DNA of 64,000 nucleotides from Dehalococcoidia bacterium (GTDB lineage Bacteria; Chloroflexota; Dehalococcoidia; Lucifugimonadales; UBA3495). Both the position numbers and the translations under genes were made by a program. The stretch covers positions 199,395 through 263,394 of the forward strand of contig OZ244795.1 in the NCBI GenBank assembly GCA_965219925.1, in the 5' to 3' direction. Positions within the stretch are counted from its first letter, which is position 1; each line of letters opens with the position of its first letter. Positions 6,127 through 63,673 of this stretch are shown piece after piece. The notes beneath the pieces were generated by a model that did no database searches, was not told where the DNA came from, and was given only the letters and a program-made list of their open reading frames with translations.

Positions 6127-6147
6127 TTCATCGTCTGGTAGATGTTG

Positions 6148-6190: not shown

Positions 6191-6405
6191 CTAACGTCGG
6201 TCGGTGTCGTCCGGCACCGCGGAAGGGCTTAGTTTCCGCCGGAGATAGCCTCTGGTGCGTTTTAGGGCTGCTGGAGTATTTTCCTCTGCCCTTTTGGTAC
6301 ATGAGAGCGTCCGGGGCCGTTTACGGGCAATTCCGGCGGTCTCGATGCTTTGCAGGCGGAGCTTCTTCCGGTCTCGCCAAGCGGGTCAGATTCGGTTACT
6401 TCAAC

Positions 6406-33967: not shown

Positions 33968-34043
33968 GGTGCTGGCAGCTCCTGGTCTCTGGCGGCTTTC
34001 GGGGGCGGTTGCTTGCGGCCTGAGGCGGATCCAGCCGACGGTT

Positions 34044-37171: not shown

Positions 37172-37347
37172 TTCTGTTCTCCTGTCCTTTGTTTTGGAAT
37201 GGCGCTGAATTCAAGTCGGCGTCTGGAACCGGCCTGAGGATTTGTCGTTTGGGTTTGTCGAAGTTGGACGGACCCGGTTTGATCTGTACCCCGCAGTGGT
37301 CGGGTCGGTTGGGGCGACCAGGGAAGGCAGGACTTGGTGACCTCCTG

Positions 37348-43059: not shown

Positions 43060-43205
43060 TCGACCGGCCCTGTTGGCCGGTGACGGCCGGCGTCGCCGTC
43101 AGTCTGCGCCGCTTTCCTGGTCCCGTTACCGGATGGTTCCGCGCTACTGCCGGGTCTCATCCTTTTGGGGCGGGCGTAAAACGAGCTTCGCAACGCGTCG
43201 GCGGC
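43060..43205 (+). repeat. H-family repeat, copy H2
   Basis: ACCGGCCCTGTTGGCCGGTGACGGCCGGCGTCGCC...CGCGCTACTGCCGGGTCTCATCC..TGGGGCGGGCGTAAAACGAGCTTCG aligns with H3 (45630-45774). Confidence 0.6.
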
Positions 43206-45629: not shown

Positions 45630-45774
45630 GATGCGAAACCGGCCGCCCGTTGGTCAGTGGCTACCGCCGCCGTCGGTCAGCAACACTTTCATTGTGCCAG
45701 CGCCTGATGATCCCGCGCTACGGCCGAGCGTCATCAAACTGGGGCGGTGTAAAACTCGTTTCGGCACGCCGGCG
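45630..45774 (+). repeat. H-family repeat, copy H3
   Basis: GATGCGAAACCGGCCGCCCGTTGGTCAGTGG...CTTTCATTGTGCCAGCG...CGCGCTACGGCCGAGCGTCATC..TGGGGCGGTGTAAAACTCGTTTCGG. Confidence 0.6.
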
Positions 45775-47722: not shown

Positions 47723-47906
47723 GGATGCGCTACTGGTTGGGCTGTACCGGGTTACCGACAAAAAGCCGGCCGCGCCGTTGGTCGGTGGCGGCCGGCGTCG
47801 CCGTTGGGCGGCGACAACATCATTGTGCCGGTGACGGTCGTTTGCGTGCCACCGCCGGGTGTCATCAGGTTGGGTAGGAAACAGGACACCCCGAATTTCT
47901 TCCGGA
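47723..47906 (+). repeat. H-family repeat, copy H4 (best-preserved hairpins)
   Basis: GCCGGCCGC-GCCGTTGGTCGGTG-GCGGCCGGC, then GTCGCC-GTTGGGC-GGCGAC, then CATCATTGTGCCGG. Confidence 0.65.
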
Positions 47907-47972
47907 AACAGCCCCTGGGCGCGTCATAGGCACTCTGGGGTCTTCTGGCCATTTGCGACTGGTTCCGGCGCC

Positions 47973-48587
47973 TCAGGCGGGTTCGATGCTGTGCAGGTAG
48001 AGGGTCTTACGGTCCCGCCACAACGGGTCCAGTTCGGTGACTTCAGCGCACTTGAATCGGTAACGTTTGCCGATCTGTAGGCCGTCCAGTCCAGGCCCGA
48101 AGGGGGCGGTCTTGCCGGTCTTTACTCCACTGTCGGTGAGCAGACTCCATTCGCCCGCACTGCGGCTAACCCGGTCAACCTGGCCGGTGAGTTCAACTAC
48201 TTTGCCCTGTTCCACGGCGCGCTGTATGGCTTTGCCGTCAGCCGGTTCCTGGGGGCCTAGGAAGTAACCGTCGTCGGGAAGATAGTCGGATTCTGCCAAT
48301 GGCGTTGACTGTGGCACCAGTGCTTGTGGATCATCAATGTTTCCTTCGGGCGTCGTGATGTACCATTTACCCTCGGGTGTTTCCAACAGCAGAGTGCGCA
48401 GGTCAACCTGACCCGCGCGCAGATCATCGAGACGGTCGGGCCTGACGCCGACCACCAGGTAACGGTCGTAATCTCCCTCTTTGTCGATCATGTCGCCGAC
48501 GTAGTGACCTCCAATGGGGTCGCGGGCAGCGAAGGTCAGGATGCCATCGTAGTATTCGAGAATTTCGGTTATGTTGATGGTTTTCAT
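47973..48587 (-). CDS. hypothetical protein (204 aa), downstream partner of a 4-nt overlapping gene pair
   Basis: Its ATG overlaps the upstream stop (ATGA at 48584-48587). I recognise no motif. Confidence 0.6.
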   Translation of the reverse strand: MKTINITEILEYYDGILTFAARDPIGGHYVGDMIDKEGDYDRYLVVGVRPDRLDDLRAGQVDLRTLLLETPEGKWYITTPEGNIDDPQALVPQSTPLAESDYLPDDGYFLGPQEPADGKAIQRAVEQGKVVELTGQVDRVSRSAGEWSLLTDSGVKTGKTAPFGPGLDGLQIGKRYRFKCAEVTELDPLWRDRKTLYLHSIEPA

Positions 48588-48961
48588 GGTACCACCACTC
48601 GGCAGTTGGCCAGGATGTCGTAGTTAGCCAGCGGCCACCAAGTATGATGAGAACGTCGGCCCGTTGGCTGGATGCTTCCCGCGCCTGATGCCAGGGTAAC
48701 CCGACAAACCGCCGTTCCTCTGAGGATTCCTCTTGTTGACAGCTGTTCGGCAACATTCCGGCTGGCGAAGACCGACAAGCCTCGGGTTTGACATTCGGTG
48801 TCGTCTCGGAAGACACGGTCCGGCTGTTCGGCCTGTTGAGACTGGAAGTCGTCATGGGCGGGCGGATGGTTTCGCACCAGGCGGTACACAACCCGCGGGA
48901 AACCGATTTCCTCGGCTTCGTCGGGTGGGCAGTCGTCGGGTAAAGGTTCACGATAGGTCAT
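48584..48961 (-). CDS. hypothetical protein (125 aa), upstream partner of the pair
   Basis: PPDEAEE..VVYRLV..DDFQS..CQTRGLSVF..SHHTWWP. It resembles a widespread uncharacterised small-protein family that I cannot name. Confidence 0.55.
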   Translation of the reverse strand: MTYREPLPDDCPPDEAEEIGFPRVVYRLVRNHPPAHDDFQSQQAEQPDRVFRDDTECQTRGLSVFASRNVAEQLSTRGILRGTAVCRVTLASGAGSIQPTGRRSHHTWWPLANYDILANCRVVVP

Positions 48962-49163
48962 GGTAGCGGTCGGATGCTGGTCGCCTTCAGTTTAGCCCGT
49001 GGCACAGAACGGTTTCCAGCCGCAGGTGCCTGAGTTGCGGGTTGCGTTTTCCATGGTTCGGGCGAGGCGTCGACCGTACCAAGGTCAGAATTCCTGATGT
49101 ATGGTCACGATGAGCCGTTTGTCCAGTTGTGGTACGCCACTATCGTCTTCAGCGAGGTTGGTG

Positions 49164-50210
49164 TCATAAGCGAGCTATGACCCTTGAGTAGGTACTAACG
49201 TCAGAGTTGCGGTTTTGATTTCTCTCTTTCTGAGGTCGGCGTCTCGTTCCGCTGAGGCGTTTGTCCATCGGGACCCGGAGTGCTCTTTTCTTCAACCGAA
49301 GAACCGACAGGTCGAGCCCGACATTGGGAATTTCCAGGTAGCCGTGTATCAACGATTCGTTCTCGTTTTGGTCGCTCTCGATCTCCTCGGCTTTGCCATG
49401 GCTTTCGGTTCGCAATTGGGCAAACCTGTCGGCTAGGGCGGTTACTCGGGCTAGTTGGTGCCAGTCGTCAAAGTAGATGTTTCGCTGGGCGGTTACGATT
49501 TGGAGGCCGTTGAGAGCCTCTATGTCGGATTCTGTAAGCGTTCGTTTATTTACGTAATCGTACGTTCCGCCGTCATAGAGCATTAGTAGATGATTTGGAG
49601 ACAGCGGGAGGAAGATCTGCAAGCCGGCGCGGAGCGCGCCGGCAATGCCCGTGTTTTGGGCTTGTTCGCAATACTGGTTGTAAAAGAACGCTGGGTTGTC
49701 GCTGGTAACAAAAACGGCCTCAGGGTGGCTGAGAACCCTGGACCTCAGATCGGAGATTGCACTGGTCACTTTGATGCCCATGTTTGGAACGAACTCGCGG
49801 GCCACGAATGATTCTACGGATCTTTCCAGTTGATTAGCGTCGCTGGCACGAGGTGAGACCGTCAGTTCAAACATTTTTCGGGACATCTCTGCTGCGGCGT
49901 TGACCGATGCCGGAGTACGTACGTGCTGCATGGCTACGAACCGAAGGATGGCCATAGGTAGGGTTCGTTCAGGGTGGCTGATTAAGTGATTGATTGCTCT
50001 ACCCGCCGCGGTTTCCATGACCGTTAGTGCGTCCTCGTTGCTTTGATCTCCATAGTAATTGGGCTTCCGGCACTGGTCTTTGATGCTCACGTCTTCCTTG
50101 GCGATGCGCCGGTGCAGGTTGAACAAGTTTATCCGCTTCGGTTTGCTGGCGAAGCGCTTAAGGTAGGATTGGGGAACGTAGTGGTGTTGCCTGGTGGGCA
50201 TGGTGCACAC
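49164..50210 (-). CDS. DUF4238-family protein (348 aa)
   Basis: N-terminal signature QHHYVPQSYLKRF. Confidence 0.7.
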   Translation of the reverse strand: MCTMPTRQHHYVPQSYLKRFASKPKRINLFNLHRRIAKEDVSIKDQCRKPNYYGDQSNEDALTVMETAAGRAINHLISHPERTLPMAILRFVAMQHVRTPASVNAAAEMSRKMFELTVSPRASDANQLERSVESFVAREFVPNMGIKVTSAISDLRSRVLSHPEAVFVTSDNPAFFYNQYCEQAQNTGIAGALRAGLQIFLPLSPNHLLMLYDGGTYDYVNKRTLTESDIEALNGLQIVTAQRNIYFDDWHQLARVTALADRFAQLRTESHGKAEEIESDQNENESLIHGYLEIPNVGLDLSVLRLKKRALRVPMDKRLSGTRRRPQKERNQNRNSDVSTYSRVIARL

Positions 50211-50539
50211 ATTCGCGACGTAGGAAATTTCATTAGATGAGGGAACGTCTGTCCTTTAGTTTGTGGTCCCCGGTGCCCAGAGAGTTCGTGCTGCCGAGTC
50301 CGGACGAATAGTTGGACATGTCCTTCCCGAGGCGTACATTGGATGCTGGGCGCCCACAGTCTAGCCCGTGGCCAGGATGTGCACTCGGCCTGGTGGCGTC
50401 GCCATCAAGTCGGCGACCGAGGTGAAACCAGAGAGGCAGAAGCACTTCATGGCGATTTAGCCGCGGCTGTCGCTATCCTGTATCGGCCGAAGGCGAATCA
50501 GCGGGTCTGCGTAGTTGCAAGCGTAGAGGATGGTCATGT

Positions 50540-51376
50540 CTAAGTTCTGTGCGGATTTATGGTACTTGACGAAGCGGTAGTTTCTGTGATCTGCCCATCG
50601 TGACGGACGTTGAATCGCCGTTCTTCGAAGACTTCTTTGACTACTAACCGTATGGCTTGTTCTCCGTCAATAACAATGTCTTCTTCATGGACGCGGGGTT
50701 TCACCCTGAACCGTACCGCTTCTATCATCGCGTGTTTGTCGAACCCTCGGATCTCCATTGTGGTTCCAGCAGGGAAGTGGACCTCAATTTGTTGCTCTGC
50801 TGGAGCTGCCGAGCTAACCGCGCCGTTGACAACTTGGTCGAGTGTCTTGGGTTCATGTCCGGGTTCGTTGATGGTGAGCTCTGCTCCTGAGGTCGTGAGC
50901 TGGATGCTTTCTCCAGCTTGCCGTGGAGGCTGTACGAACTCCAAATCGTAAAATTCAGGAAACGTAAGGTGTAGCCTGATGCAGATTGTCTTGATTCTCC
51001 CTTCCCAGTCAACGTGGTTGGGCTCTCGCATCTCGACCAAACCGATATTTCTCTGTTTCGCCAATGCCATTGCTCCAGACGTAAACCCTTCTCTTGAGAC
51101 GATCACCCCCTTCTCGGTGTTGGTGTCTTCGAGTGTGGTGATCAAGTTGCTCACTACATTCCTGGTAACTTTCTTTCGCCAGTACTTGCACTCGATGGCT
51201 GTCCTGACGGTTTGCAATCCGTTGGACTGCTTGGTTAGTACGTCAATTTGGTACCAGCTGCCTGACTTTCCTTGGATGCGGCAACCGGCTCCGAAACCCT
51301 TGATGGCGATGCCAGAGCTTTTTCCCATTGCTTGGTACAAGGCTGCGGTTGTTGCCTCGTATTCCTTGTCGTCCAT
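50540..51376 (-). CDS. Mrr-like PD-(D/E)xK restriction endonuclease domain protein with unknown C-terminal domain (278 aa)
   Basis: GKSGSWYQIDVL...AIECKYWRKKV...KGVIVSREGFTSGA. Confidence 0.7.
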   Translation of the reverse strand: MDDKEYEATTAALYQAMGKSSGIAIKGFGAGCRIQGKSGSWYQIDVLTKQSNGLQTVRTAIECKYWRKKVTRNVVSNLITTLEDTNTEKGVIVSREGFTSGAMALAKQRNIGLVEMREPNHVDWEGRIKTICIRLHLTFPEFYDLEFVQPPRQAGESIQLTTSGAELTINEPGHEPKTLDQVVNGAVSSAAPAEQQIEVHFPAGTTMEIRGFDKHAMIEAVRFRVKPRVHEEDIVIDGEQAIRLVVKEVFEERRFNVRHDGQITETTASSSTINPHRT

Positions 51377-51599
51377 TTTGCGAACCTTGCTGACATGGAT
51401 ACAGTTTGTCTTGATGGGGTCCCGGATTGGCGTTTTGTGGCTTTATTCTACACGTTCGGTTTTCGCCATCGGCGGTTGCCGATCAGTGTGGTTACTCCGG
51501 CATCCGCCGGCTGGCCGTTGCCGGACGCCAAGTACAGGTTGACGAAATGCCTCGTGTTGATCAGACGCTGTGCCGCCAATGGCGCCATCTTGTAATGAC

Positions 51600-51762
51600 C
51601 CAAAACAGTACGGCATGTCAAGATCTCGGCGAAATCGTCATCGCTGAACAGCTGGCCCCGCAGTGAGGCCAGCAAACCGTAAAAGGTGTCCTGGCCCACG
51701 TAGTCCAGATACAACCGGTCCGCTTCCCAAAGGCCCCTCTGGTCCGAACGCTTTCCCAGCAT
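51600..51762 (-). pseudogene. IS1182/IS5-like transposase N-terminal fragment
   Basis: MLGKRSDQRGLWEADRLYLDYVGQDTFYGLLASLRGQLFSDDDFAE. Homology is lost after ~55 aa. Confidence 0.5.
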
Positions 51763-51836
51763 TGCCCTGCTCCGCTAGCCTTGATTGCCCGGAGTATAAC
51801 CCCTCGCCAAATCAACCAGGGTTTCCGGCCAGCTTT

Positions 51837-51980
51837 CTAGTATTACAACGACGGTTGGTAAAGACAGACCCAGATTTCGGCCCACGCCAAACGGGGACGA
51901 TACTCAGATGAGGATAGCTTGGCCACCCTCGGATGCGGAACGTCAAGCGTCATTCACTAAATCCGTCGTTGTAATACTAG
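51837..51980. mobile_element. 144-bp MITE-like element, copy b
   Basis: Perfect 18-bp TIRs CTAGTATTACAACGACGG (51837-51854) and CCGTCGTTGTAATACTAG (51963-51980). Confidence 0.7.
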
Positions 51981-52107
51981 TAGCCGGACAGTTTTGAAAT
52001 GACGGGTGTGGAATGCCAGATTGCTCGACGATAGTCTCCATAAAGCCCTGTATGGCCGGGGAAAGGCCCTGTACCAATCAACCCATCATTACAAAGATTT
52101 CGGACCA

Positions 52108-52400
52108 CTAGGCGAGTTTCGAGGTCTGGACGATGGTGGGCCGCCCATGGGGACAGCGGTGTGGCTCCGGCGTTTTGGCCAGCTGCTCGATGATGGCCTG
52201 CATCTCTCCCGTGTCCAGTACGTCGCCGGCGCGGGACGCTGAGTGTCCACGCGATGGTGGCGGCGACCGCTTGTTGCGGTGAGCTGATGATCTGCTCGGT
52301 GGCGCATTCGTCCAGCAGTCGCTGCGGCAGGTTGATCTACTACGTCATCGCGTCGACGCGTTGCAGGTTGAATCCCTGCTGTTCAATGCGTTTGAGGTGT
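52108..52400 (-). pseudogene. mutL: mutL 3'-end remnant 1 (two in-frame stops, one frameshift)
   Basis: TLVEHLKRIEQQGFNLQRVDAMT-TAG-TAG-INLPQRLLDE..AVAATIAWTLSVP, then in a shifted frame AGDVLDTGEMQAIIEQLAKTPEPHRCPHGRPTIVQTSKLA-stop. CPHGRPT is the MutL C-terminal signature. Confidence 0.75.
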
Positions 52401-52401
52401 T

Positions 52402-54309
52402 CTACGAGGGTGTCGCGGGATTCGTTAGTTCGGGTTCCATAGTCTCGTCGGGGTCGTCGTCCGGGTCGTAAGACGGCTGGTCGGGTTCGTCGAAGTCGAC
52501 GTGCCACCGTTTTGTCGCCCACCGGAGAATGCGACGGCGGCGTTCGACTATGGTGTCGACGGTCCAGTCAGACCATGCTTCCGCGATTTCGTTTTCGATC
52601 TTAAGATTTGAGTGGCGGTAACAATAAGGGCCGGCATTACCGCAGTCGCGCTTCTGCGGAAACGGCTTGTTGCTCAAGGACTCGTTGCCGTTGGTGAGGG
52701 AAAGATTGCCGATGTCGTGGACGTAGTCCCGGTGGGTCTGCTCGTCGAAGCGTTCGATCCAGTAGTCTTGGCCTTTGATGGACTGCGGAGAGATATGTTC
52801 GATGGAGCTGTTGTTGATGTGGCCCCAGGGCGTTATCGGCAGCCCTCTCTGGGCGGCGGCCAAGTGGGTTTCGTACTCGTACAGCAGGTAGCTGAGACCC
52901 GAGCGTCCGAACCAGTTGTGTAGTACGTCGTGGTCCGAGAACTGGGCGAACTCACGTCTTGCGTCGCGGCTGTCGTAATGGCGCTTTATTTCGGGAAGGA
53001 TGTCTTGAACGCTGTCCGCTTGGGATACCTTATTGGCGAGTCGGAACATTGCCGGCTGCCTGTAATGAGCCGCAAACCGGGAGATGCGGTAGGTGCGGAA
53101 GGCGACGGCTTCGCAGAGTCTTAGAGTTTCGAGGTACGGTGCCGGATCCTCGGGCCAGCGTTTCCGTATTGCGATGAAGAGCGGCAAGAACGTGGCTGTT
53201 ACGCCGATGCGCGCAAGCCTCTGGTTCCAGGCTTTTACCTCGCCACGCGAGTTGGCTGGGAAGATGTTGAAAGCATCAGTTCGGTTCGGCTTCAGGAAGT
53301 CGCAATATGCGACGCATGAGTTTCGAAGGCTCGAGAGGTAGTCGAACAGTTGCTGGAGGGCCTCACCTGTGTCCATGTGGCCGGGATCGAGGCGTTCCTT
53401 AATGCTCTTGGCGCCGCGCCAATTGTGGGGTTGCGGATCGTAGTCCATTATCCAATGGGAGCGAAGCAACTGGTTCTCGTTGGCGGCGGAATCGAGATCG
53501 GCTTGACTGAGGTTGGTGAGGATTGCTTTCCACGTGTCGTTGACGGCATCGGCGAATTGTTTTTTGCTGACTTCGTCGATGCCGAGGCGTGAAGCTGTAT
53601 AGAGGAGGAAGTTTTTGACCTTCTCGAGGTCGCTGAGGGACTTGCCACGGTCGTTAACTACCTCGAAGATGAGCCCGACGTCGGTGGGGTCTTCGATTTC
53701 GAACCTGTTGAACCGCAAGGAACTTGTTATCTTCTCGTACAGCGAAGTAAGCCAGCTTTTACGTTCGGCGTGGTCCTCTGGACCTTGGCTTAAACGAAGG
53801 GCGAGACGTTCCCGAGCATTACGCAGCCTGGTCGAGGCTGCGACGAGAGGCCCGGCAATGTCCTGGGGAGCGTCGGGAAGGACATGGTCCTTGAAGAATT
53901 GGTCGGTTTCCTGGTTGAGGTTGAGCTTGTACAGGGGAAGCCCGTGCATGCCTGTGGCCCGGATGAAGTTTTTGGTGATGCCCTGGGCAAGGGTGTCGTG
54001 TTCGTCCAGAGAACGGAGGGCTTTAGCGATTTCGTTGAGCAGTATCACAACGGTGGTGAGGCGCTGTTGGCCGTCAACCACTTCGGAGCGGGTGTAGTGG
54101 TTGCCCTCGTTGTCCATGGTTGTCGGCGCTGCGTCCGACTCGAAGAGTGCTATGGTGCCGGCGTAGTGAAGCCTTTTGGGGTGCAGGGATTGGAGGTCTT
54201 CCCAGAACTCGTCCACCTGTTGGGTTTCCCAGGCGTAGCCGCGCTGGTAATCCGGTATGTCAAATACGCGGCCCGAAAAGACGGTCTGGAGAGGCATGGT
54301 GTTTTTCAT
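52402..54309 (-). CDS. GmrSD-family type IV (modification-dependent) restriction enzyme, DUF262 plus DUF1524
   Basis: FDIPDYQRGYAW and DGQQRLTT (DUF262/ParB-like). C-terminal SIEHISPQS...VHDIGNLSLTNGNESLSNKPF (DUF1524 His-Me finger). Confidence 0.85.
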   Translation of the reverse strand: MKNTMPLQTVFSGRVFDIPDYQRGYAWETQQVDEFWEDLQSLHPKRLHYAGTIALFESDAAPTTMDNEGNHYTRSEVVDGQQRLTTVVILLNEIAKALRSLDEHDTLAQGITKNFIRATGMHGLPLYKLNLNQETDQFFKDHVLPDAPQDIAGPLVAASTRLRNARERLALRLSQGPEDHAERKSWLTSLYEKITSSLRFNRFEIEDPTDVGLIFEVVNDRGKSLSDLEKVKNFLLYTASRLGIDEVSKKQFADAVNDTWKAILTNLSQADLDSAANENQLLRSHWIMDYDPQPHNWRGAKSIKERLDPGHMDTGEALQQLFDYLSSLRNSCVAYCDFLKPNRTDAFNIFPANSRGEVKAWNQRLARIGVTATFLPLFIAIRKRWPEDPAPYLETLRLCEAVAFRTYRISRFAAHYRQPAMFRLANKVSQADSVQDILPEIKRHYDSRDARREFAQFSDHDVLHNWFGRSGLSYLLYEYETHLAAAQRGLPITPWGHINNSSIEHISPQSIKGQDYWIERFDEQTHRDYVHDIGNLSLTNGNESLSNKPFPQKRDCGNAGPYCYRHSNLKIENEIAEAWSDWTVDTIVERRRRILRWATKRWHVDFDEPDQPSYDPDDDPDETMEPELTNPATPS

Positions 54310-54974
54310 GGCGCGGACCTCAGTGCGGATTCGTTTCTCGAAACGGAGGATCTGGGCGGCGCGTTCCGGCGGTTGGGTTCATCGCGGGCGTTCTTTGCTC
54401 GGAGGCCACGCGCTTGAGTGAAGACGGAGTCTGGGTTTGGAGCGCAAACTAACCCGGCTTATAGGGAAGTTGGATCTGCACGGTGCTTGCGCAGAATTTC
54501 GACTGCTCTGGGCCACTCCTTAACTGCCGTAGGCACCTTCGCAGTGGGACGCGAATAGCCAACGCGAAACCAACAAACGTGGTCTAGAGAGTGGTAGATT
54601 TCCGTCTGGACCGTTGGCGAGGTAATCGCGAATTTGGGACGCCATTGAGTTGTTGGCGTAAGGTGCTTGGCGGTGTGACGAAAATCGCTTCCGTGTTTCG
54701 GGTCGTGCATATCGGCAGTTTAGACTATTCCTACAGGGCCTGTCATGGCGGACAACAGAGTTGGTCCTGAGGCGCTGTGGACGGATCTCTGCGGTGCCGG
54801 TTCTGGTTGGTGGTGTTCGTGCAACCATCACAAGCGGAGCACCAACTCTGGCGACGCGCACTGAGACGGCGAAGGGGTTATGCGCGTATTATGGTTTTCA
54901 CTCGATTGGGTTGTGAAAATCGGAGAGCCTGCGGTCGGCTATGGCTTGGTCAGAATGCAATCAAAGGAGCTTTA

Positions 54975-55319
54975 GTGGATAGAGACGAATGGCTGAATTT
55001 GCCGCAAACCGATCCTCAACGATCGCGCACTATAGTGTGGGGAACTCTGCAAGCCTTTGCGGATACTGAGTCTGTGCTCAATGAGTTGCAAGCGGCTGGC
55101 CTAGACAGCCTGTTCCGGTCAGTCTTGACTGACTTGGGGTATGAGCTGGAAGCTCAATCAGGTGGATTGATCCACATCAATCTGCAGTCGGGTGAACAGT
55201 CCCATTGGGTTCGACGCATTGCTCGATTCCTTCTGGAACCTGGAAATTCAGGACGCCCAGCTCATGAGTTAGCCGCTGACCTTCGTGCTTTAGGGTATGC
55301 GGTGGACTTTGACCCTTGA
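54975..55319 (+). CDS. hypothetical protein (114 aa)
   Basis: AAGGAG lies 5 nt upstream of GTG 54975. The longer ORF from 54777 has an implausible Arg/Cys-rich N-terminus. Confidence 0.4.
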   Translation: MDRDEWLNLPQTDPQRSRTIVWGTLQAFADTESVLNELQAAGLDSLFRSVLTDLGYELEAQSGGLIHINLQSGEQSHWVRRIARFLLEPGNSGRPAHELAADLRALGYAVDFDP

Positions 55320-55643: not shown

Positions 55644-55790
55644 GGCATCTGGTGCCGGGAACGGAACCGGCCGCCCAGCGTCGGCGGCGGCCGGCGTCGC
55701 CTTTAGTCGGCGACGCTTTCATGGTGCCAGCGGCGGCATCCGCCGCTCTACAGTTGGGTGGCATTCACTTTGGGGGCGGATTACTGGGAA
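55644..55790 (+). repeat. H-family repeat, copy H5
   Basis: CCGGCCGC-CCAGCGTCGGCG-GCGGCCGG, then GCGTCGCC-TTTAGTC-GGCGACGC, then TTTCATGGTGCCAGCGGCGG-CAT-CCGCCGCT .. TGGGGGCGG. Confidence 0.6.
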
Positions 55791-55844: not shown

Positions 55845-56210
55845 TCACTTCAGCAGGCTGTTGCACTCCGGCTGGTAGTGCTTGATCAGGCGATCTTCCA
55901 ATTCGGTTGCCCACTCTGGGCTGTCGGTCAGGCAGACTGCGAACTCAACGTGGTCGCGGTTCAGATACAGCGCGTCGTACAGCCGACGGTTGCTGTGCCG
56001 CTCTTGGGGCGACAGGTGGTCCAACAAGCGAGTTTTGACGCTTTCCCCATCTGCTGACTTGCCAATGTACAGGCAATCGTATGGGCCGTTCCAAATGGCG
56101 TACACGCCCCAACCGTCGGTTACCAGAGCGCGTACTGCGTCTCGGTTGTAGCTCTGCTGATTGCTCTCGAGCCGATGCCGGGCAGTATGGTAAGTAGGCT
56201 CGCCGGACAT
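55845..56210 (-). CDS. GIY-YIG nuclease (121 aa), last gene of the DUF499/DUF1156 operon
   Basis: WGVYAIWNGPYDCLYIGKSADGESVKTRLLDHL ... ELEDRLIKHYQPECN. The ATG lies 6 nt after the methyltransferase stop. Confidence 0.75.
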   Translation of the reverse strand: MSGEPTYHTARHRLESNQQSYNRDAVRALVTDGWGVYAIWNGPYDCLYIGKSADGESVKTRLLDHLSPQERHSNRRLYDALYLNRDHVEFAVCLTDSPEWATELEDRLIKHYQPECNSLLK

Positions 56211-56216
56211 GGTTCA

Positions 56217-59048
56217 CTAGTTCCGCGGGAGTCCTACTTCTCCGATCAGTTGCCGTTCCCTTGGTCGGTTCATTTCCTGCATGATTTCAGACCATGCCGT
56301 TACCACGTTGTTGAACGCAACCGCCCGTTGGGAGTCGTTACGCGAGTTGTAGTGGTCGTACAGGATGCGTGCCAGCCGTTCCACGCTGTCCAACCGGTCA
56401 CCGGCGCGCCGGGCTACGGGGACACAGCCGGCGACGCCCTTACGGTCTTCTCCGGTTTGCATCTGGTACGCCATTCGCATGCAGTCTTCCCAAGCGGTTA
56501 CTTCCTCTCCCGAGGGGTAACTGCGCTTTTCATCGTAGGCGTCGATGTCGTACAGCGCTACTTGGCCTTGGCTGGCGTGGAGCAGTCGGTGGGTTTGCTC
56601 CAGTCGGTCGTCGATGGTGAGGTCGTAGGCGCGGGCGAGGTTTTCGGCGGTGCCGTAGTCTCCCTTGCCGCTGGGGTAGGCCCGCAGCCAGTCTAGGCAG
56701 AAACGGCTTTCGGTGTCCAGTTCGCCGGCTTGCTCTTGCAGGTAGGCGTCCACCGCGTCGTTGATTGCGATGAGCGCCTGGCGCACCGTTACGGTTTCGC
56801 CGGCGAGTGTAGCCACATTCCGGTAGCGGGAATAGATGGCCATGCCGAGGCCAATGGCGGCCTGCCTCAGGTCCACCGGGGCAATGTGCGCCTCCCTGGT
56901 CAACTGATCCAGTTTGGCCGGCATGTCCCGCTCTAACGCGGTGACGAAATCGCCGCGGCTGGCTACAGGCGCGTTTTCTGGTCTGGGGCGGCAGACTAGA
57001 ATGACTGATGAGGCCAAGGTATTTGCGTTCATAGCGTTGGCTCTCACCGACATTTCTGTGCGCATCGGCCAAGTTCCAACAATCTGGAAGCCAGCCTTCA
57101 CTACCGATGTCAGCATGGTCTCCCAACCGGTCGAAGTGACGCCCTCTCGCTCTTGCTCCTGCTGCTTGTACGCATAGAAAATGGACGATGGGAACTCTGG
57201 TGAGCAACGTTCCCTTATCAATTCCAATGTTTGTGCCATCAGATTGTCGAACCTTTGACGGGGGTCTGAAAACCGGGATGGAATGGCCGTAATTTCCTCG
57301 GCTTTGGGCGTGAGGATCCCGGCGAACATATCTGGGTAAATGTCTTGCAGCAGCGGTCGTAGCCAGACGTAATAGAAGTCGGACAGATCGGCGTAGTCGA
57401 TGTTGTCGTAGTAGGGTGGGTCAGTGACGATGATCGGTCCGCCATCGGCATGAATGGTGGTGGCCGCATCAGCCTGATGAGCAACGCCGTTGTTGACATT
57501 GAGCGGCAATCGTTCGATTACCCTTGCGACCCATTCAACTTGTGCCATCCAGTTTTGGGTTGAGTCGGAAAACGGATTCGCTTCAGCAAAATCCCAAACC
57601 ATCGCGATTCGCTGACGCGAAAAAACTCCGGCGACTTTGTCGCCGGAGTTGTGCCAACGGGCGTAACTGCATCCGTTGTCAGCACTCCTGTCGATGGCCA
57701 TTGCCAAATAGGTGACGATGGCGTTGGCGTACTCGGTTCCAGCACCGTCTTCCGTCATGATCTGTCGGATAACCGAAAGCGTTTCACTGAAAGTTGTCAA
57801 CGTGGTTAGTTGCCTTTCAGAAAATAGCTGGTGCCAGTGTGTAACCCCGTACCTTCTGGGGCGCAGCACATTACCGGAGTCGGATGCCGCCTGCTGAGGT
57901 TTCCAATTGGGAGTTGCATCCTCGGCGGCTTGAATATGTTCGTCGGTAGCTGACAGGAACAACCGCTTGCGGTTTCCGGCTGCGACGACGGCCGTCATTT
58001 GCTCACCCATGTTGCCAGAGCGTGCCTGCTCACTAACGTACTCTAACCGAACGGCTCCATTGCAAGCTATGCAGACTGCGCCACTTCGACCAACGGTGCC
58101 GTTGCTTGGAACATCTTTGCTGTTGCTTTGTACCGTATAGGAAACAGCGTTTGTGCCTTGATGTAGCGTCGGCTTTATCCAATGGCGGTTGTTCTTGGAA
58201 AGTTGGAAGGTTTTCAGCAGGGGCATTGCCACGCCGCAGGCAGGGTTGGGGCAGGGCACGGTGCGTGCCCAGAGCCAGGCAATTACCGTGGCCTCGCCAC
58301 CGTCGGGCAACGCAGCCTTAGGGTACAGGTGGCCGATGCGTTCCCAACCCATTTCCCGCATCTTACGTCCATAGTAGCGGATGTCGTCGGCTAATCCGGC
58401 GGCGCCTCGCCATAGAACCTGTTTGGCGCGTTCGCCTTTGCCGACGGTCAGGCCCATAGGGTCGGCGTCGGGGTTCACCGGCGGACGGTTGGCGAATTTG
58501 GGCGGCAGCTCAATCATGGCTTTGGTAATCAGCACGGCTACCGGGTTGAGGTCGGAGCCGACGGCGCGCAGGCCCAGGCGCTGGGCTTCTAGGGGTATTG
58601 AACCGCCGCCACAAAAGGGGTCGTAAATTGGCTTGGCTTGCCGGTTCAGGTAATCGAGCACCGCGGCCGGCGCCGTTGGTGCCGTTTCATCATTGACGCG
58701 GGCTACCGAGCGAGCAATTTCGTAGCGAGCCTCGGCCAGCAAGTTGGCGTCGTTGCTGCTTTCCCACTTGACCAGCCGCTTGATGAGGTCGTGCAGCCGC
58801 TGTCGCTCTGCCCGTTGTACATCCTCAGTGGGGAACTCATCCGCGCAGTCCACGGGGTCGTCCACCAAGCTGGCGAAGATGACGGCGCGGCAGGCGGCTA
58901 GGGGACGGCGTGCCCACCACAGATGCAGAGTTGAGGGGTGGCCGTGACGGATGGACTTCTCCCGCGCCGATTCGGCGTTGATCACGTCCAGCGGTAAGTC
59001 AACTTCGATGAGTTTGCGGCGGTAGGGGAGAACTGCAATACTGACCAC
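56217..59048 (-). CDS. DUF1156-type DNA methyltransferase (N6A/N4C class)
   Basis: RKLIEVDLPLDVINAESAREKSIRHGHPSTLHLWWARRPLAACRAV (DUF1156). IYDPFCGGGSIPLEAQRLG (motif I). IIVTDPPYYDNIDY (motif IV). The start is placed at GTG 59048, preceded by GGAGGTGG; ORF ATG 59096 is the alternative. Confidence 0.85.
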   Translation of the reverse strand: MVSIAVLPYRRKLIEVDLPLDVINAESAREKSIRHGHPSTLHLWWARRPLAACRAVIFASLVDDPVDCADEFPTEDVQRAERQRLHDLIKRLVKWESSNDANLLAEARYEIARSVARVNDETAPTAPAAVLDYLNRQAKPIYDPFCGGGSIPLEAQRLGLRAVGSDLNPVAVLITKAMIELPPKFANRPPVNPDADPMGLTVGKGERAKQVLWRGAAGLADDIRYYGRKMREMGWERIGHLYPKAALPDGGEATVIAWLWARTVPCPNPACGVAMPLLKTFQLSKNNRHWIKPTLHQGTNAVSYTVQSNSKDVPSNGTVGRSGAVCIACNGAVRLEYVSEQARSGNMGEQMTAVVAAGNRKRLFLSATDEHIQAAEDATPNWKPQQAASDSGNVLRPRRYGVTHWHQLFSERQLTTLTTFSETLSVIRQIMTEDGAGTEYANAIVTYLAMAIDRSADNGCSYARWHNSGDKVAGVFSRQRIAMVWDFAEANPFSDSTQNWMAQVEWVARVIERLPLNVNNGVAHQADAATTIHADGGPIIVTDPPYYDNIDYADLSDFYYVWLRPLLQDIYPDMFAGILTPKAEEITAIPSRFSDPRQRFDNLMAQTLELIRERCSPEFPSSIFYAYKQQEQEREGVTSTGWETMLTSVVKAGFQIVGTWPMRTEMSVRANAMNANTLASSVILVCRPRPENAPVASRGDFVTALERDMPAKLDQLTREAHIAPVDLRQAAIGLGMAIYSRYRNVATLAGETVTVRQALIAINDAVDAYLQEQAGELDTESRFCLDWLRAYPSGKGDYGTAENLARAYDLTIDDRLEQTHRLLHASQGQVALYDIDAYDEKRSYPSGEEVTAWEDCMRMAYQMQTGEDRKGVAGCVPVARRAGDRLDSVERLARILYDHYNSRNDSQRAVAFNNVVTAWSEIMQEMNRPRERQLIGEVGLPRN

Positions 59049-59473
59049 AGGGCCACCTCCATACAATGTGTCCACTGGTGCGACGATGATGCGCATCGTC
59101 GCACACTACCGAATGGGCTTTCCACAAGGACTTGCCCTTTTCCCGTTACGATTTGCATACCCCAAACTTCCCCGGCCGTCAAAACATCTGGATGGTTTTG
59201 GAATAGCAACAAGGTTGACGTGGCGATTACTGCTGTGCACTGATTGCACAGAGAGTATTGGCTAGAACGGTAAAGTGTCCAAACGTGTCGGCAGGTCTCG
59301 GCTCTTTTTCGTAATTCTTTGGTAGCCTTGGCGTCGCGTCTGCTCTCGAGCCAGGTGTTGACGTCGAATTTGACCGTTATGCGGATGGTAATTATCGCCA
59401 AAGCGATTGCACCGATATACGCGACGATTTTCCACCACGGCAGGAACAGGGCTTCGAGGATCGTAGGTTCCAT
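58982..59473 (-). CDS. small protein with N-terminal TM helix and CxxxW...CxxC (163-aa ORF, 3' end overlaps the methyltransferase start)
   Basis: WWKIVAYIGAIALAIITIRI hydrophobic helix, then a charged region and CRHVW..CNQC. It sits between the DUF499 and DUF1156 genes on the same strand. The SD is weak. Confidence 0.4.
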   Translation of the reverse strand: MEPTILEALFLPWWKIVAYIGAIALAIITIRITVKFDVNTWLESRRDAKATKELRKRAETCRHVWTLYRSSQYSLCNQCTAVIATSTLLLFQNHPDVLTAGEVWGMQIVTGKGQVLVESPFGSVRRCASSSHQWTHCMEVALWSVLQFSPTAANSSKLTYRWT

Positions 59474-59549
59474 GCGTTTCTGATCCGTAGCGGTAGAGCG
59501 GCAGATTGCGACGGATGCGTTCTTTACGCACTGTATGTTGATGTGATTT

Positions 59550-62500
59550 TCAGGAGGTGATGTCGTCTGTCAGATCAATGCCCAGCATACTGCTGTTGTC
59601 GCGCAGACTGCGGGCGACATTTTCGGAAATCCCGTCGTCGTTGCTGCCAGTCACGATGACTTCTACTGTCACGGCACAGCCGGCGGCGGCCATGATGCGG
59701 GCTATTTCGTCCCGTATGGTCGTGTTGAAATCGTACGAAAATGCTTCCTGTTGGGCTACCGTCTTTCGGGCCACGATGCGTCGGGGGCGGCTCGGCACGG
59801 GCGTAGGCGACGGTGCTTCGTTGCCACTGTTGCTACTGTTTTCAGTGGTTTCGGTGGTTTCATCAGTTTCCTTGCCATTGGTCTCAGCGTCACCTTTGTC
59901 GGCGCTTTCTTCACCGCTCGCAGAGCCATCGTTTTCGTCCAGGTGCAGCTGGGCGATGTCCGGTTCAATGATCAACGTTGAGCCAGACAGGGGAGGAACC
60001 TGGTAAGGAAGGCTGTTTTCGCTGATGCCACGCCGCAGGTTGCGGTATTCATTAGTGGTGACGTCGTAGCCGTCGGCGCGTCCGAAGACACCGGCTTTGA
60101 TGCCCTCGTTCAGGCACTGTTCCAGAACCTGCCTGTTCCGCAGCCGAAGCCCCAGATATACGTTGTGGGTCAGCAGGTCCCACAGTTCGTCAACGGTGAC
60201 GTGATAGCGCGGGTTGGGGCCACTCCAGAGCCGCTCTTGCAATCGCCGGGTAAGCGCTTCGGGCGCCAGCGCGTCAACGAGTAGCTCATCCGCCACGAAT
60301 TTTTGGAAAGCGTTGGCGGCGATGTCGGCTTGTGTGCTGATCTGTCGCCAGTTGTCGGCGTCGTACTCGGCGTTCTGCGGGTTGGGTTGGCTGGGCGCCA
60401 TTGTCCAGCGGTAGGCGTTGCCAAGCGCATTTTGCAGTGCTCTGTTGGCTTCCTTTTGCTGTTCGCTGCTCTGATTGCGGCGGTCGCCGATCAGATTAGC
60501 CACCCGCCGGTTGCCGTTGATGATGGAGTCCCAGGCTATGAATCGCCGGGCGGTGGCGCGCATTTCGCGCACGCCGTCGCTGGACGAGGCTAGGAACAGC
60601 AGGGTGTTAGGGCGAGTGCGCCGAGCCTCGTTGCCGCAGGCATATAACATCGTTTTGGCTGCCTCCGAAGCATGGTCGCTTTCGGCGGAGCGGCTGGGTT
60701 TGGGCTGGTCGGGGCGCAGTATGATCAGTCTAACGAAGTCGTCGTCGCGTACGTCAGCGTGTGACTCCGGGCAGGCGATGACGGCGCGGTCAGAGTTCCG
60801 CTGGTTGAACTCGCTGAGGCGGCGGATGATTTCCGCATCCAGTGCTTCGTTGCCAAGTTCGGCGGCGCGATCATTGGCTACCTTGTTTAGGTTCTCTTCG
60901 GAGTCGAAGTAATAGCGACTGTCGTTGCCCCGGTAGAAATGGTATAGCTCCCCGTCCATGGTCTGAACGGCCTCCGAGTACACGGCGGTACCATGGCCGG
61001 GCATCACTACGCCGAGGTTGACTTGTCGGGCCGTGACGCCGCGAACCGCCTTCTGAGTCGAGCTCCCGAGGAACACGGAGCGTGCTGCACGACGGGCGGC
61101 GCCACCAACGGAGCCGAAGCGTTCTGGCTTCTGCCGGTCAATGGCATGGGTTCGGGAGTTGTCACGGTCCACCTCTGCCACTACTGCGTCCCACTGCGGT
61201 CCCAGCAACCTGACGAACTCTTCGCTTATTGACGCCTCGCTGAAGGGCAAATCGCCCGGCATGATCAGTGGAGCCTGATTGTTGTCGGCACACAACCAGC
61301 TGATGGTCTGCGCCATCATGCGCAACACGCCGCGAGTGCGCTGGAACTGGTGGTACAGCGACCAGTCCTCGTAGAGGCGGTCGAAGATCTCGGGGTGGAT
61401 GGGGTAACACTGGCGCAATCGCTCCAGGTAACGAGTTTCACGAGCTTCGGACGGATAGTCGCCGGCGCCGCGCTGGTACATCCGGTAGAAAGCCTGGCAG
61501 GTATCTTCCCGAGTCGCTTCGTCGCAGTCTTCTTGGAACAACCGCCGCCGCACCACGGCAAAGGCTTCGTCGTTGCTGGCCTGTGCCACCTGGGTGACCG
61601 TCTGCATCCGGTTGAGGATATTTTCTAGCATGGCCATGGCTTCCATGCCGCGCTCGCCGCCGGCTTCGGTTGCAGTAACCGGCAACGTAACGATGAGGGC
61701 CACGTTGTCGCGTCGGCTGACGGCCTCGGTGAGGTTCTGAAAGAAGGTTCCGATGGTATCAAGGTCGGCGTTGCGAGCATAGTTGACAATTTCGTCCATC
61801 AGGATGACGCACGGACCGACGAGTTGGAACATATTGTCCAATTCCTCGCCTCCTGGCGCAGTACCCCGCCGGGCAGCGGTCCCCACAGGTTCGTAGGCGG
61901 CTTGTCCGCCGAGTTGCCAGGCCATCTCGCCCCACAGGGTGTTCAGCGGGTCGCCGGCGTCGGTACGTCGGGTAATCGTTTGCGATAGCCAGGTTCCCTG
62001 TAACACGCAAACCTTCGCGTTCACTCGTTGGTCGGGGTCAACTCCGGCGTCGGTCAGTATTGTGAGGAATTCTGCCTTGGTACTAGCGTCGGGAGCCTCC
62101 GACAGTTCGCTGGCACTGTTCATCAGGTGGTACAGGGCAATCAAACTGTGGGTTTTGCCCCCGCCAAATCCGGTTTTTGTCTGGGTGATGGGGTTGCCGC
62201 CCTTGCCGTTGACGCGCTTGGTAGCGGTCACCAGCAAGTCATGGATCCCGCTGGTGACGTAGGTGCATCGGAAGAACTCCAACGGGTCGCCGTACATCGC
62301 TGGGGCAGTGCCGTCGAAAACTTGCTGGAGGTTAGCAGCGAAGTCGGCTTCCAGGAACGAGCCTTCGGCTACGTCTTCTTTGGGACGCATTGCATCACGC
62401 CATGGCTTTAGCGAGTGGCCGTCGCCATTGCGGTGACCTTGCTCTGTACTGAGCACTAGTGCCGGCTGCGTAGGTTGAGGTTGCTCGGAGCTGCGTATTA

Positions 62501-62960
62501 GTGATTGAATTTCCATCACTTCTTTCGCCTGCTGAGGGCGGTTGATGCTTTCAAGGGCTTCGCTGATGAAGTACAGGTTGGCTTCGGCCTTTTCGGCCGT
62601 GATGTCCTGCCCACTAGTGTCGTGGGCTAGGTCGTTGCGAATGTCCCGTATTGTCCGAAGGCGGTTTCTAGCGGTAGTCGCCTTGGTGAACTGGCTCTGG
62701 AACATGTCGGTCCAATTCTTCTCAACTAGGTTTGGGATAAACCCGATTTCGATGGAGCGAGGCACGTTTCCGTCGTTTTCCCGCATATTGTCGGTAAAGT
62801 CCTGCCTCTGCCGGTCCGCGAGCGAGTTGGCAATCGTCTGTTCTAGGCGGGAACCCGGTTTCTGCCTCAGAACGCGAGCTACGAATTCGCTCATCTCGTC
62901 GCGGTAGATGGCCAATCCCTTACGGAGGACGTCATCGTTTGGGTACTGGGCAGTCGTCAT
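59550..62960 (-). CDS. DUF499 P-loop ATPase with N-terminal Swt1-like HEPN domain (1136 aa)
   Basis: RTIRDIRNDLAHD (Rx4H, nt 62622-62639). Walker A TGFGGGKTHS (nt ~62150-62171). A large alpha-rich body typical of DUF499. GGAG lies 9 nt upstream of the ATG. Confidence 0.8.
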   Translation of the reverse strand: MTTAQYPNDDVLRKGLAIYRDEMSEFVARVLRQKPGSRLEQTIANSLADRQRQDFTDNMRENDGNVPRSIEIGFIPNLVEKNWTDMFQSQFTKATTARNRLRTIRDIRNDLAHDTSGQDITAEKAEANLYFISEALESINRPQQAKEVMEIQSLIRSSEQPQPTQPALVLSTEQGHRNGDGHSLKPWRDAMRPKEDVAEGSFLEADFAANLQQVFDGTAPAMYGDPLEFFRCTYVTSGIHDLLVTATKRVNGKGGNPITQTKTGFGGGKTHSLIALYHLMNSASELSEAPDASTKAEFLTILTDAGVDPDQRVNAKVCVLQGTWLSQTITRRTDAGDPLNTLWGEMAWQLGGQAAYEPVGTAARRGTAPGGEELDNMFQLVGPCVILMDEIVNYARNADLDTIGTFFQNLTEAVSRRDNVALIVTLPVTATEAGGERGMEAMAMLENILNRMQTVTQVAQASNDEAFAVVRRRLFQEDCDEATREDTCQAFYRMYQRGAGDYPSEARETRYLERLRQCYPIHPEIFDRLYEDWSLYHQFQRTRGVLRMMAQTISWLCADNNQAPLIMPGDLPFSEASISEEFVRLLGPQWDAVVAEVDRDNSRTHAIDRQKPERFGSVGGAARRAARSVFLGSSTQKAVRGVTARQVNLGVVMPGHGTAVYSEAVQTMDGELYHFYRGNDSRYYFDSEENLNKVANDRAAELGNEALDAEIIRRLSEFNQRNSDRAVIACPESHADVRDDDFVRLIILRPDQPKPSRSAESDHASEAAKTMLYACGNEARRTRPNTLLFLASSSDGVREMRATARRFIAWDSIINGNRRVANLIGDRRNQSSEQQKEANRALQNALGNAYRWTMAPSQPNPQNAEYDADNWRQISTQADIAANAFQKFVADELLVDALAPEALTRRLQERLWSGPNPRYHVTVDELWDLLTHNVYLGLRLRNRQVLEQCLNEGIKAGVFGRADGYDVTTNEYRNLRRGISENSLPYQVPPLSGSTLIIEPDIAQLHLDENDGSASGEESADKGDAETNGKETDETTETTENSSNSGNEAPSPTPVPSRPRRIVARKTVAQQEAFSYDFNTTIRDEIARIMAAAGCAVTVEVIVTGSNDDGISENVARSLRDNSSMLGIDLTDDITS

Positions 62961-63066
62961 TTAGAAATCTCCGAAAAATCAGGGTCTTGGCCGCTGTAGC
63001 GGCTTGGCCGGCTGGAGGAGGTAATTCTGCAGAGTGGTGGGAGCCTCAAGCGAATTGATCGCGCTG

Positions 63067-63075
63067 ATTGTAGCA
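63067..63075 (-). promoter_or_regulatory. candidate extended -10 promoter (TGcTACAAT) for the DUF499 operon
   Basis: The minus strand reads GGTGCTACAATCAG ~105 nt upstream of ATG 62960. The -35 is poor. Confidence 0.3.
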
Positions 63076-63673
63076 CCAGACCATGGAATGTGGCGTTTGC
63101 GCCTTCGAATGGAGTATTCGGAGTATTCACTGTTGGCGACCAGCGGCAGCAGCGTCCGCTGTGTGGCGGTTTTCAGGCGCGGCGGGGCGGTGTTGATGGT
63201 TCCGCAGCTGTTGGCGTTTTCCTTTCGACCCTGCGCGGTTTGGGCATTCGGACGCCTGGCGACGCCGGATACGCTGCCGGCCTGGCGACGCGCTGGAGCT
63301 GGTCCCCGTGCCAGCCGCAGGCGACGCCGTGCTACGTCTGGACACTCTTTCCTGCCATAAGGCCAAGGCAAACGCCGGGGAATGCCCTAAATTCTTGCGC
63401 TGGGGACACGCGGGGGCGCTTAGCGAGACCGTAAGGGTTATCTGCCTTGAGGCTGGGAACGATCCGCACAGCGCCTCTGGTGCAGCATCATGCGGTTGCT
63501 GGCCGGCAATGGTGTACGTGGGGAGTTCTGACGAACTCGTGAGGAGAGGCTGTTACTGCTGCGGCATCTCACCGCATTGCGGTTCTGCACGCGGGCCTGC
63601 CGTCGTCGTTGCCGGCCATTACTGCGTAGTCGCCCACGCGGGCGTCGCCCTACGCTCGACCAGCTACGTTGAT

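Follow-up and report, generated by a model that had tools for sequence, protein, structure and literature searches.

What kind of system is encoded near the end of a 64,000-nucleotide stretch of contig OZ244795.1 from a Dehalococcoidia bacterium (the whole stretch is called the window here), where four open reading frames (ORFs) of 1136, 163, 959 and 121 aa follow one another on the minus strand within positions 55845-62960? A first-pass annotation had read them as one integrated system, in which a DUF499 ATPase with a HEPN head, a small protein with one transmembrane (TM) helix, a DUF1156 methyltransferase and a GIY-YIG nuclease act together, and had proposed that this is a distinct variant of a defence system with two nuclease effectors. 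Our results suggest a different answer, to which we give a probability of about 0.7. The locus would be a variant of the Hma (Type-1 BREX-related) system that has three genes and no helicase, with the order hmaC (ATPase), hmaB (methylase), GIY-YIG and a restriction-modification (RM)-like mechanism, and the small membrane gene would be foreign DNA at the hmaC/hmaB junction.

As a description of the genes the first-pass annotation stands. The ORF read-out gives the same four ORFs in the same order, with 76 nt between the hmaC stop and the ATG of the small ORF and 6 nt (TGAACC) between the hmaB stop (TAG) and the GIY-YIG ATG. The small ORF overlaps the start of the methylase with either hmaB start (GTG 59048 or ATG 59096). 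Pfam matches HEPN_Swt1, DUF499, DUF1156 and GIY-YIG where they had been called, the motifs RNDLAH, GGGKTH, FCGGGS, DPPY, CRHVW and CNQC are each present, and the small ORF has a single TM helix at residues ~8-38 (Kyte-Doolittle peak 2.28).

The ATPase-methylase pair and its GIY-YIG partner

The name Hma dates from 2021, when it was given to an operon of three genes, for a helicase (HmaA), a methylase (HmaB) and an ATPase (HmaC), with 1,638 occurrences in 26 phyla (Payne et al. 2021, PMC8565338). In Halomonas, protection against T4 came from HmaA, an Snf2 helicase that carries a PD-(D/E)XK nickase at its C-terminus (PMC11232893). In a 2026 survey Rakesh & Krishnan renamed Hma Type-1 BREX-related (BR), described a tripartite core of ATPase, methylase and helicase that the three BR types share, and listed HEPN-fused DUF499 in 1,370 taxa (PMC12839542). 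The earlier description of the pair as mechanistically uncharacterised thus no longer wholly applies.

The 1136-aa protein of the window matches Pfam HEPN_Swt1 (residues 14-139, E 8.8e-9, 36.1 bits against a cut-off of 27.5), Pfam DUF499 (E 4.7e-24) and the PADLOC HmaC model (5e-217 over residues 183-1129). The methylase matches Pfam DUF1156 (E 3.4e-29, plus weak methyltransferase families) and the PADLOC HmaB model (4.2e-268 over residues 26-944), and the NCBIfam anti-phage DUF499 and DUF1156 equivalogs score far below their cut-offs (165 against 1200 bits and 137 against 1000 bits). The PADLOC matches agree with the proposed DUF499/DUF1156 defence pair and, judged by sequence, the two proteins are clear HmaC and HmaB orthologues, so that the locus has both the DUF1156-type N6 methyltransferase and the DUF499 ATPase of Hma. 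Walker A (GGGKTH) and Walker B (ILMDE) of HmaC are invariant in 21 relatives, and motifs I and IV of HmaB in 24. In the HEPN head, RNDLAH provides the R-x4-6-H motif in an all-helical domain that characterizes the HEPN superfamily, and RN..AH is kept in 20 of 21 clade members. The exception is a Caldilineaceae metagenome-assembled genome (MAG; OZ251482.1, locus L015, hmaC at 4141-7038), in which the whole HEPN head is gone, with an in-frame stop 20 codons before the DUF499 core, and hmaB and the GIY-YIG gene are intact. Since this locus keeps its GIY-YIG without the HEPN head, GIY-YIG can apparently be the sole nuclease of a locus.

The component of Hma that we did not find is the Swi2/Snf2 helicase HmaA, usually with a C-terminal PD-(D/E)XK domain, and the gene order also differs, being hmaC-hmaB-GIY in the window and all clade members instead of hmaA-hmaB-hmaC. 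Our HmaA queries came from the Gloeocapsa pGLO7428.03 and Thermus thermophilus pVV8 plasmid loci (helicase - DUF1156 - inserts - HEPN-DUF499) and are ~48% identical to each other. With these two, tblastn found no HmaA in the 64-kb window, which holds only 1 kb upstream of hmaC, and none in 22 of the 23 GTDB loci described below with their 10-kb flanks. Among 56 large flanking ORFs scanned, out of 62 of at least 500 aa, there was a single SNF2-related domain besides type I HsdR. Taken together, the searches of window and flanks for HmaA by tblastn, Pfam and PADLOC gave one divergent Snf2 ORF, in locus L018. The large ORFs at 31-55 kb of the window are unrelated to HmaA, encoding FN3/LRR-VWA surface proteins, a DDE transposase, and DUF6575, DUF4238, Mrr-type and GmrSD proteins. 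An hmaA lying beyond other defence genes, as in Halomonas, was considered and rejected, there being none in the 30 kb downstream.

As a canonical control, a JGI metagenome scan with an HmaB alignment gave 80 loci at 40-48% identity, all canonical. HmaA was detected in 62 of them, most of the others being cut by contig ends; the order was hmaA-hmaB-hmaC, 61 of the 62 having HmaA ahead of hmaB. No member of the GIY-YIG family and no copy of the small ORF occurred in the 80 loci. The helicase partner that the first-pass annotation named for the pair is thus the normal association. Its proposal of a distinct variant holds for the GIY-YIG gene; the missing helicase-nuclease and the reversed gene order had not been noticed there.

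The 121-aa protein matches Pfam GIY-YIG (E 1.6e-6, 28.7 bits against a cut-off of 22.6), and its AlphaFold model (predicted local distance difference test, pLDDT, 88) is matched best in Foldseek by the N-terminal GIY-YIG domain of UvrC (1yd6, probability 1.0, template-modelling scores 0.63/0.79) and next by R.Eco29kI (0.25-0.31 on the Eco29kI chains). Residues Y37, Y48, R61, E105 and N117 (window numbering) are invariant in an alignment of 21 sequences, and the genome loci also retain the motifs. The protein thus has the hairpin tyrosines (GVY37, LY48IG), the R61, E105 and N117 residues and the fold of the GIY-YIG superfamily, and nuclease activity is predicted. The gene is under purifying selection (nonsynonymous to synonymous rate ratio, dN/dS, 0.07-0.25). 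It encodes a bare catalytic core with a conserved N-terminal extension of ~30 residues, and neither the alignment nor the model has a DNA-binding domain or a homing-endonuclease-type extension, from which we infer that the protein would need a partner for targeting. The family is rare, with 52 close homologue clusters of ~121 aa and only 24 proteins at E <= 1e-10 when a profile was run against 1.84 billion representatives of clusters at 50% identity; no PADLOC model matches it, and neither it nor the small ORF was found on IMG/VR viral contigs.

A pattern scan built from the GIY-YIG alignment, over one genome per GTDB species, gave 23 loci, viewed with ~10-kb flanks, from Dehalococcoidia, Caldilineaceae and Tepidiformaceae MAGs and one Latescibacterota. 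The GIY-YIG gene follows hmaB or an hmaB remnant in all 23, and hmaC is also present upstream in 21, even where GIY-YIG identity is 35-42%. Of the 21 loci with hmaC and hmaB both retained, 19 have an hmaB-GIY gap of 10-176 nt and two, L018 and L026, one of ~0.5 kb. The order HEPN-DUF499, DUF1156, GIY-YIG is found in three metagenome contexts (L003-L005; a further one, L006, is the same place as the GTDB locus L012). In the reciprocal direction, a protein search seeded with HmaB gave at least 120 clusters at 63-86% identity, and the four contexts that were looked up (64-71%, L115-L118) all have hmaC, an insert, hmaB and GIY-YIG and no helicase, with a Fic gene between hmaB and GIY-YIG in L115 and ~320 nt there in L118. 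HmaB is ~58-86% identical within the GIY-YIG clade and 40-48% to canonical loci, and neighbour-joining trees place the GIY-YIG loci in one clade apart from the canonical loci, both for HmaB (24 tips) and for HmaC (21 tips). There is no fourth conserved flanking gene, no ORF family being common to more than three loci within 5 kb. We therefore agree with the first-pass annotation that the GIY-YIG tail marks a distinct variant, as it is a conserved partner in 23/23 GIY-seeded and 4/4 HmaB-seeded loci and in 0/80 canonical ones. The hmaC, hmaB and GIY-YIG genes make up the whole conserved unit, and the variant is rare and mostly Chloroflexota-specific.

Over 20 loci the pairwise identity of GIY-YIG tracks that of HmaC (r 0.89, partial 0.81), and the corresponding values against the adjacent HmaB are r 0.63 and partial -0.11. 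Because GIY-YIG divergence follows HmaC far better than the neighbour HmaB, these values suggest a nuclease-ATPase partnership. Four MAGs have two loci of the family each (L010/L013, L011/L020, L015/L022 and L016/L023). In L015/L022 and L016/L023 the copies are from two deep subclades, with GIY-YIG ~60% and ~36-42% identical to that of the window, which suggests differing specificities, and in the other two MAGs the second locus (L013, L020) is decayed.

The small membrane gene and the hmaC/hmaB junction

The small ORF is a real, selected gene. Its coding signal, a check that had been named beforehand, is present (dN/dS 0.15-0.24), and there are five homologues at 66-71% identity, of 125-126 aa except one with an N-terminal extension. 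The protein has no family at E <= 0.01 in Pfam, PADLOC, NCBIfam or PHROGs; in a low-confidence model (pLDDT 55) the TM helix is followed by a long basic helix and a C-x-H...C-x2-C hairpin. Only the first 125 of the 163 codons are conserved. The homologues stop there, ending in ...R-R/Q-TGA. When the DNA of the window is aligned with that of L001 and L002, their TGA stands opposite TGC, and the window ORF goes on for 38 more codons into hmaB, so the window copy has lost its stop codon. The stretch homologous to these two loci begins in the ribosome-binding region and extends ~25 nt past the original stop. We also considered the ATGA overlap of the small ORF as a sign that its homologues are translationally coupled to a downstream gene and rejected this, since the gene that follows in L001 and L030 has its start at another place.

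The first-pass annotation had asked whether both extra genes are conserved partners of DUF499 and DUF1156. The GIY-YIG gene is one in the clade described above, but none of the 26 other GIY-clade loci examined has the small gene, and no such gene was called in L115-L118. In three of the four homologue contexts viewed (L001, L002 and L030) a type IIG N6_Mtase/Eco57I enzyme of ~1040 aa precedes it, and none of the four is an Hma operon. In L031 it lies directly after a 103-aa ORF (3350-3661) with a weak GIY-YIG match (Pfam E 0.008), in surroundings with IS66/DDE transposases and an integrase. In the closest relatives of the window locus (L003, L005 and L007) there are 15-50 nt between hmaC and hmaB, as against ~500 nt in the window.

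The junction between hmaC and hmaB is a recurrent insertion hotspot, whichever of the two genes comes first. An NYN gene lies there in seven loci (L010, L011, L021, L024, L025, L027 and L117); at ~210-235 aa it is the commonest cargo. NYN genes, 34-38% identical, are also found downstream of the small TM gene (L002 5726-6370, L030 5385-6029), in its type IIG contexts, so the two cargo genes share neighbourhoods. Other cargo includes HigB/HigA-like pairs, DUF6978 with DUF1828/1829, a SieB-domain protein (in L116) with DUF433, and various TM proteins, such as those of L028 and L029. There is also an AAA_15/AAA_21 ATPase, which has a partner of ~158 aa in L115 and L118 and three other ORFs next to it in L025. 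In canonical operons the hmaB-hmaC inserts include four-helix-bundle, HicAB and helix-turn-helix genes (the Gloeocapsa and T. thermophilus loci), and foreign defence genes were found inserted inside the Halomonas operon, where the insert is an AAA_21 pair (PMC11232893). The small TM gene is one more passenger of this junction. From its distribution and contexts we read it as independent cargo and not as a component of the system, contrary to the first-pass annotation.

Layout and surroundings of the locus

The positions of the features are given in Table 1. For hmaB the GTG start at 59048 is more likely than the ATG at 59096, because GGAGG lies 7 nt upstream of it and it fits the N-termini of the relatives.

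Table 1. Features of the hmaC-hmaB-GIY-YIG locus and its surroundings, with positions in the window
Feature	Position	Strand	Basis
Non-coding leader upstream of hmaC	63006..63566	-	DNA identity to L003
hmaC: HEPN(Swt1-like)-DUF499 ORC/Cdc6-like AAA+ ATPase, 1136 aa	59550..62960	-	Pfam and PADLOC
HEPN domain of HmaC, residues 14-139	62544..62921	-	Pfam
RNDLAH, the R-x4-H motif of the HmaC HEPN	62622-62639	-	
76-nt spacer, hmaC to inserted small gene	59474..59549	-	sequence
Small ORF, full 163-aa reading	58982-59473	-	ORF read-out
Small inserted gene, conserved 125 codons: N-terminal TM helix, long basic helix, C-x-H...C-x2-C hairpin	59099..59473	-	
38-codon read-through extension of small ORF, overlapping hmaB 5' end	58982..59098	-	DNA and protein alignment
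hmaB: DUF1156 N6-type DNA methyltransferase, 943 aa from GTG 59048	56217..59048	-	
hmaB longest ORF, ATG 59096, 959 aa	56217-59096	-	
hmaB motif I, FCGGGS	58599-58616	-	
hmaB motif IV, DPPY	57408-57422	-	
Stand-alone minimal GIY-YIG nuclease (predicted), 121 aa	55845..56210	-	Pfam GIY-YIG
Dispersed GC-rich repeat just 3' of GIY-YIG gene	55645..55765	-	blastn
GmrSD-type enzyme	52402-54309	-	PADLOC HEC-06 1.7e-59
Mrr_cat nuclease	50540-51376	-	domain match
DUF4238 protein	49164-50210	-	domain match
DUF6575 protein	47973-48587	-	domain match
DDE transposase	46044-47078	-	domain match

The ~560 nt upstream of hmaC (63006-63566) are 77-85% identical in DNA to L003 3298-3752, upstream of the hmaC of that locus. 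This stretch has no long ORF and is homologous only to L003, the closest relative, and it may be a conserved leader or promoter. At the other end, the GC-rich repeat is ~70-120 nt long with short hairpins, looks REP- or MITE-like and has no Rfam match. Weaker copies are found in the window at 43078-43124, 45634-45702 and 47766-47837. By blastn, copies lie directly after GIY-YIG in L003, L004 and L007 and others occur in L003, L010, L024 and L027, and the repeat marks where the conserved unit ends. No Rfam family and no tRNA came up when 40-64 kb of the window was scanned, and in a promoter and terminator scan the signal was not above the shuffled expectation.

The system sits in a defence and mobile-element island (window 46044-54309). 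Within it an ORF at 51448-51762 resembles, by eye, the N-terminal fragment of an insertion-sequence family transposase. Between the GIY-YIG and GmrSD genes, on the opposite strand, is a 180-aa ORF (54777-55319, plus strand) with no match in Pfam, PADLOC, NCBIfam or PHROGs. Farther away, 31973-40899 holds three very large minus-strand ORFs for FN3-repeat, VWA-LRR and FN3/Calx-beta proteins. Its G+C content is 0.64-0.71, compared with 0.54-0.62 in the defence island, and this step is probably that between native chromosome and acquired DNA.

Proposed mechanism and alternatives

How might three such genes work together? By analogy with RM systems, HmaB, a DUF1156 amino-methyltransferase with a DPPY motif, would mark host DNA, and HmaC, an ORC/Cdc6-like AAA+ ATPase, would be an ATP-dependent sensor or switch acting on unmarked DNA. 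The GIY-YIG protein, a complete core without a DNA-binding domain, would be the subunit that cuts the DNA, with HmaC as its most likely recruiter, and would stand in for the PD-(D/E)XK nuclease carried on the canonical HmaA helicase. The HEPN head of HmaC may be a second, RNA-directed effector or back-up, possibly for abortive infection. This scheme, with the anti-phage activity, methylation and DNA cleavage that it supposes, is drawn from the analogy. We give roughly even odds to the reading that the trio needs no helicase and works as a defence system on its own, which would in effect make it a fourth BREX-related type. In this reading HmaC directly licenses GIY-YIG against DNA unmarked by the DUF1156 methylase.

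The variant shares with Hma (Type-1 BR) the HmaB and HmaC orthologues, the frequent HEPN head, a junction that collects genes and a defence-island setting. It differs in being without HmaA, which is the defining core of Hma and its only experimentally protective component, in its C-B-nuclease order as against A-B-C, in its stand-alone GIY-YIG and in forming a separate monophyletic clade. The primary effectors of BR systems are PD-(D/E)XK, HKD and PglZ, and the nuclease effector centred on DUF499 is exchangeable, being HKD in Type-2 and PglZ in Type-3 (PMC12839542). Unlike our variant, however, both of these types keep the core helicase and add DUF3780, or PglZ and iSTAND, and have no GIY-YIG. 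Type-2 has a stand-alone DUF3780 and an HKD-helicase; there is no helicase in the window, and the partner families of Type-2 and Type-3, including DUF3780, had no match among the subset of window ORFs scanned against Pfam.

Pairing of a GIY-YIG catalytic fold with a DNA methyltransferase is also a feature of the R.Eco29kI family. However, the enzymes of this family are ~200 aa or longer and have their own DNA recognition, whereas the 121-aa core of the window covers only part of Eco29kI, and in place of the small cognate methylase of Eco29kI-type RM it is partnered by a DUF1156 methylase of 943 aa and, always, by an AAA+ ATPase. With an alignment limited to the catalytic core, the locus does not have the GIY-YIG restriction endonuclease of a classical type II RM system. 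In McrBC, which lacks a cognate methylase and attacks modified DNA, an AAA+ motor works with a small nuclease subunit encoded separately. The likeness to McrBC is one of functional analogy, of an NTPase with a separate nuclease that lacks its own target recognition, and here the GIY-YIG tracks the ATPase; there is no sequence relationship, HmaC being of the ORC/Cdc6-STAND type.

HmaB, HmaC, the HEPN head and the exchange of effectors are thus known. For the combination of core-helicase loss, a GIY-YIG effector and reversed gene order we found no description in the literature searched. As a domain name GIY-YIG is absent from the main text and text supplements of the 2026 BR survey, whose supplementary neighbourhood tables could list such loci (PMC12839542). 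No paper in this literature has DUF1156 and GIY-YIG together, and DUF499 and GIY-YIG co-occur only in one study and its preprint, in unrelated passages.

Several points weigh against the helicase-less reading. The only Hma system that has been tested protected by its helicase-nuclease alone, overexpression of HmaB left T4 infectivity unchanged and no role was demonstrated for HmaB or HmaC (PMC11232893), so that their roles are unproven even in canonical Hma. The co-variation of HmaC and GIY-YIG could come from differing rates of hmaB, from lower HmaB variation or from hmaB recombination, and not from contact. A helicase may be encoded elsewhere in the genome, beyond the 1 kb upstream of hmaC in the window and the 10-kb flanks of the other loci. 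Finally, one GIY-clade locus, L018, from a Dehalococcoidia MAG (CBDBCU010000005.1), does have an Snf2 ORF (21-2045). This ORF, truncated at the edge of the locus, has SNF2-rel_dom and Helicase_C, and 187 nt separate its end from the hmaC that lies downstream. No nuclease domain was recognised in it, and it is 29-35% identical to HmaA, as against mostly 43-73% to the same references in canonical loci. We considered L018 as an evolutionary intermediate and rejected this, as the locus is nested, not basal, in the HmaB and HmaC trees.

Among the alternatives, the best surviving one, though still unlikely, is that the HEPN RNase of HmaC is the real effector, acting by abortive infection, and that GIY-YIG is an accessory or back-up nuclease of the kind seen around BREX and BR loci. 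The conservation of the HEPN R-x4-H motif in 20 of 21 members agrees with this, and many auxiliary nucleases are found beside BR cores, with HEPN regarded as a suicide effector (PMC12839542). However, the locus without a HEPN head retains its GIY-YIG, GIY-YIG is found in every member of the clade and just where the helicase-nuclease is lacking, and the published auxiliary nucleases accompany the helicase and do not replace it.

Decidedly less probable is an incomplete system, in which the trio is a remnant minus hmaA or relies on a helicase elsewhere and GIY-YIG is a fortuitous or selfish neighbour. Some loci are visibly decayed (L012, which is L006, L013, L014 and L020), and the Snf2 ORF of L018 lies beside hmaC. 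But 21 GTDB trios and four more are intact, with conserved motifs and strong purifying selection, and the clade is monophyletic with its own gene order and a GIY-YIG that co-diverges with HmaC. L018 is nested, its helicase being farther from HmaA than the two reference HmaA are from each other, and GIY-YIG has no DNA-binding or homing-endonuclease-type extension.

The four-gene system of the first-pass annotation, with the small membrane protein as a functional component beside two nuclease effectors, is a shade less probable still, for although the small ORF is real, selected and in the same orientation inside the operon, and other membrane proteins occur at the junction (L116, L028 and L029), the gene is missing from the 26 GIY-clade and 80 canonical loci and from the calls in L115-L118, its homologues mostly follow type IIG enzymes and never lie in an Hma operon, the nearest relatives have almost nothing at a junction that elsewhere holds unrelated cargo, and the window copy has lost its stop codon.

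The role of the DUF499 ATPase and DUF1156 methylase is the central question for Hma and BR systems. Here a natural clade has dropped the helicase, kept both partners under selection and always coupled them to a bare 121-aa nuclease, which argues that the pair itself senses and marks. If the helicase-less reading is true, the DUF499/DUF1156 pair would be a functional core that senses and marks in its own right, at odds with the Halomonas study, which suggested that hmaB and hmaC may be dispensable. The clade also offers a compact construct of three genes whose activities (Walker A, DPPY, GIY-YIG and HEPN) can be mutated one by one, and the exchangeable effectors of BREX-related systems would be extended to the GIY-YIG fold.

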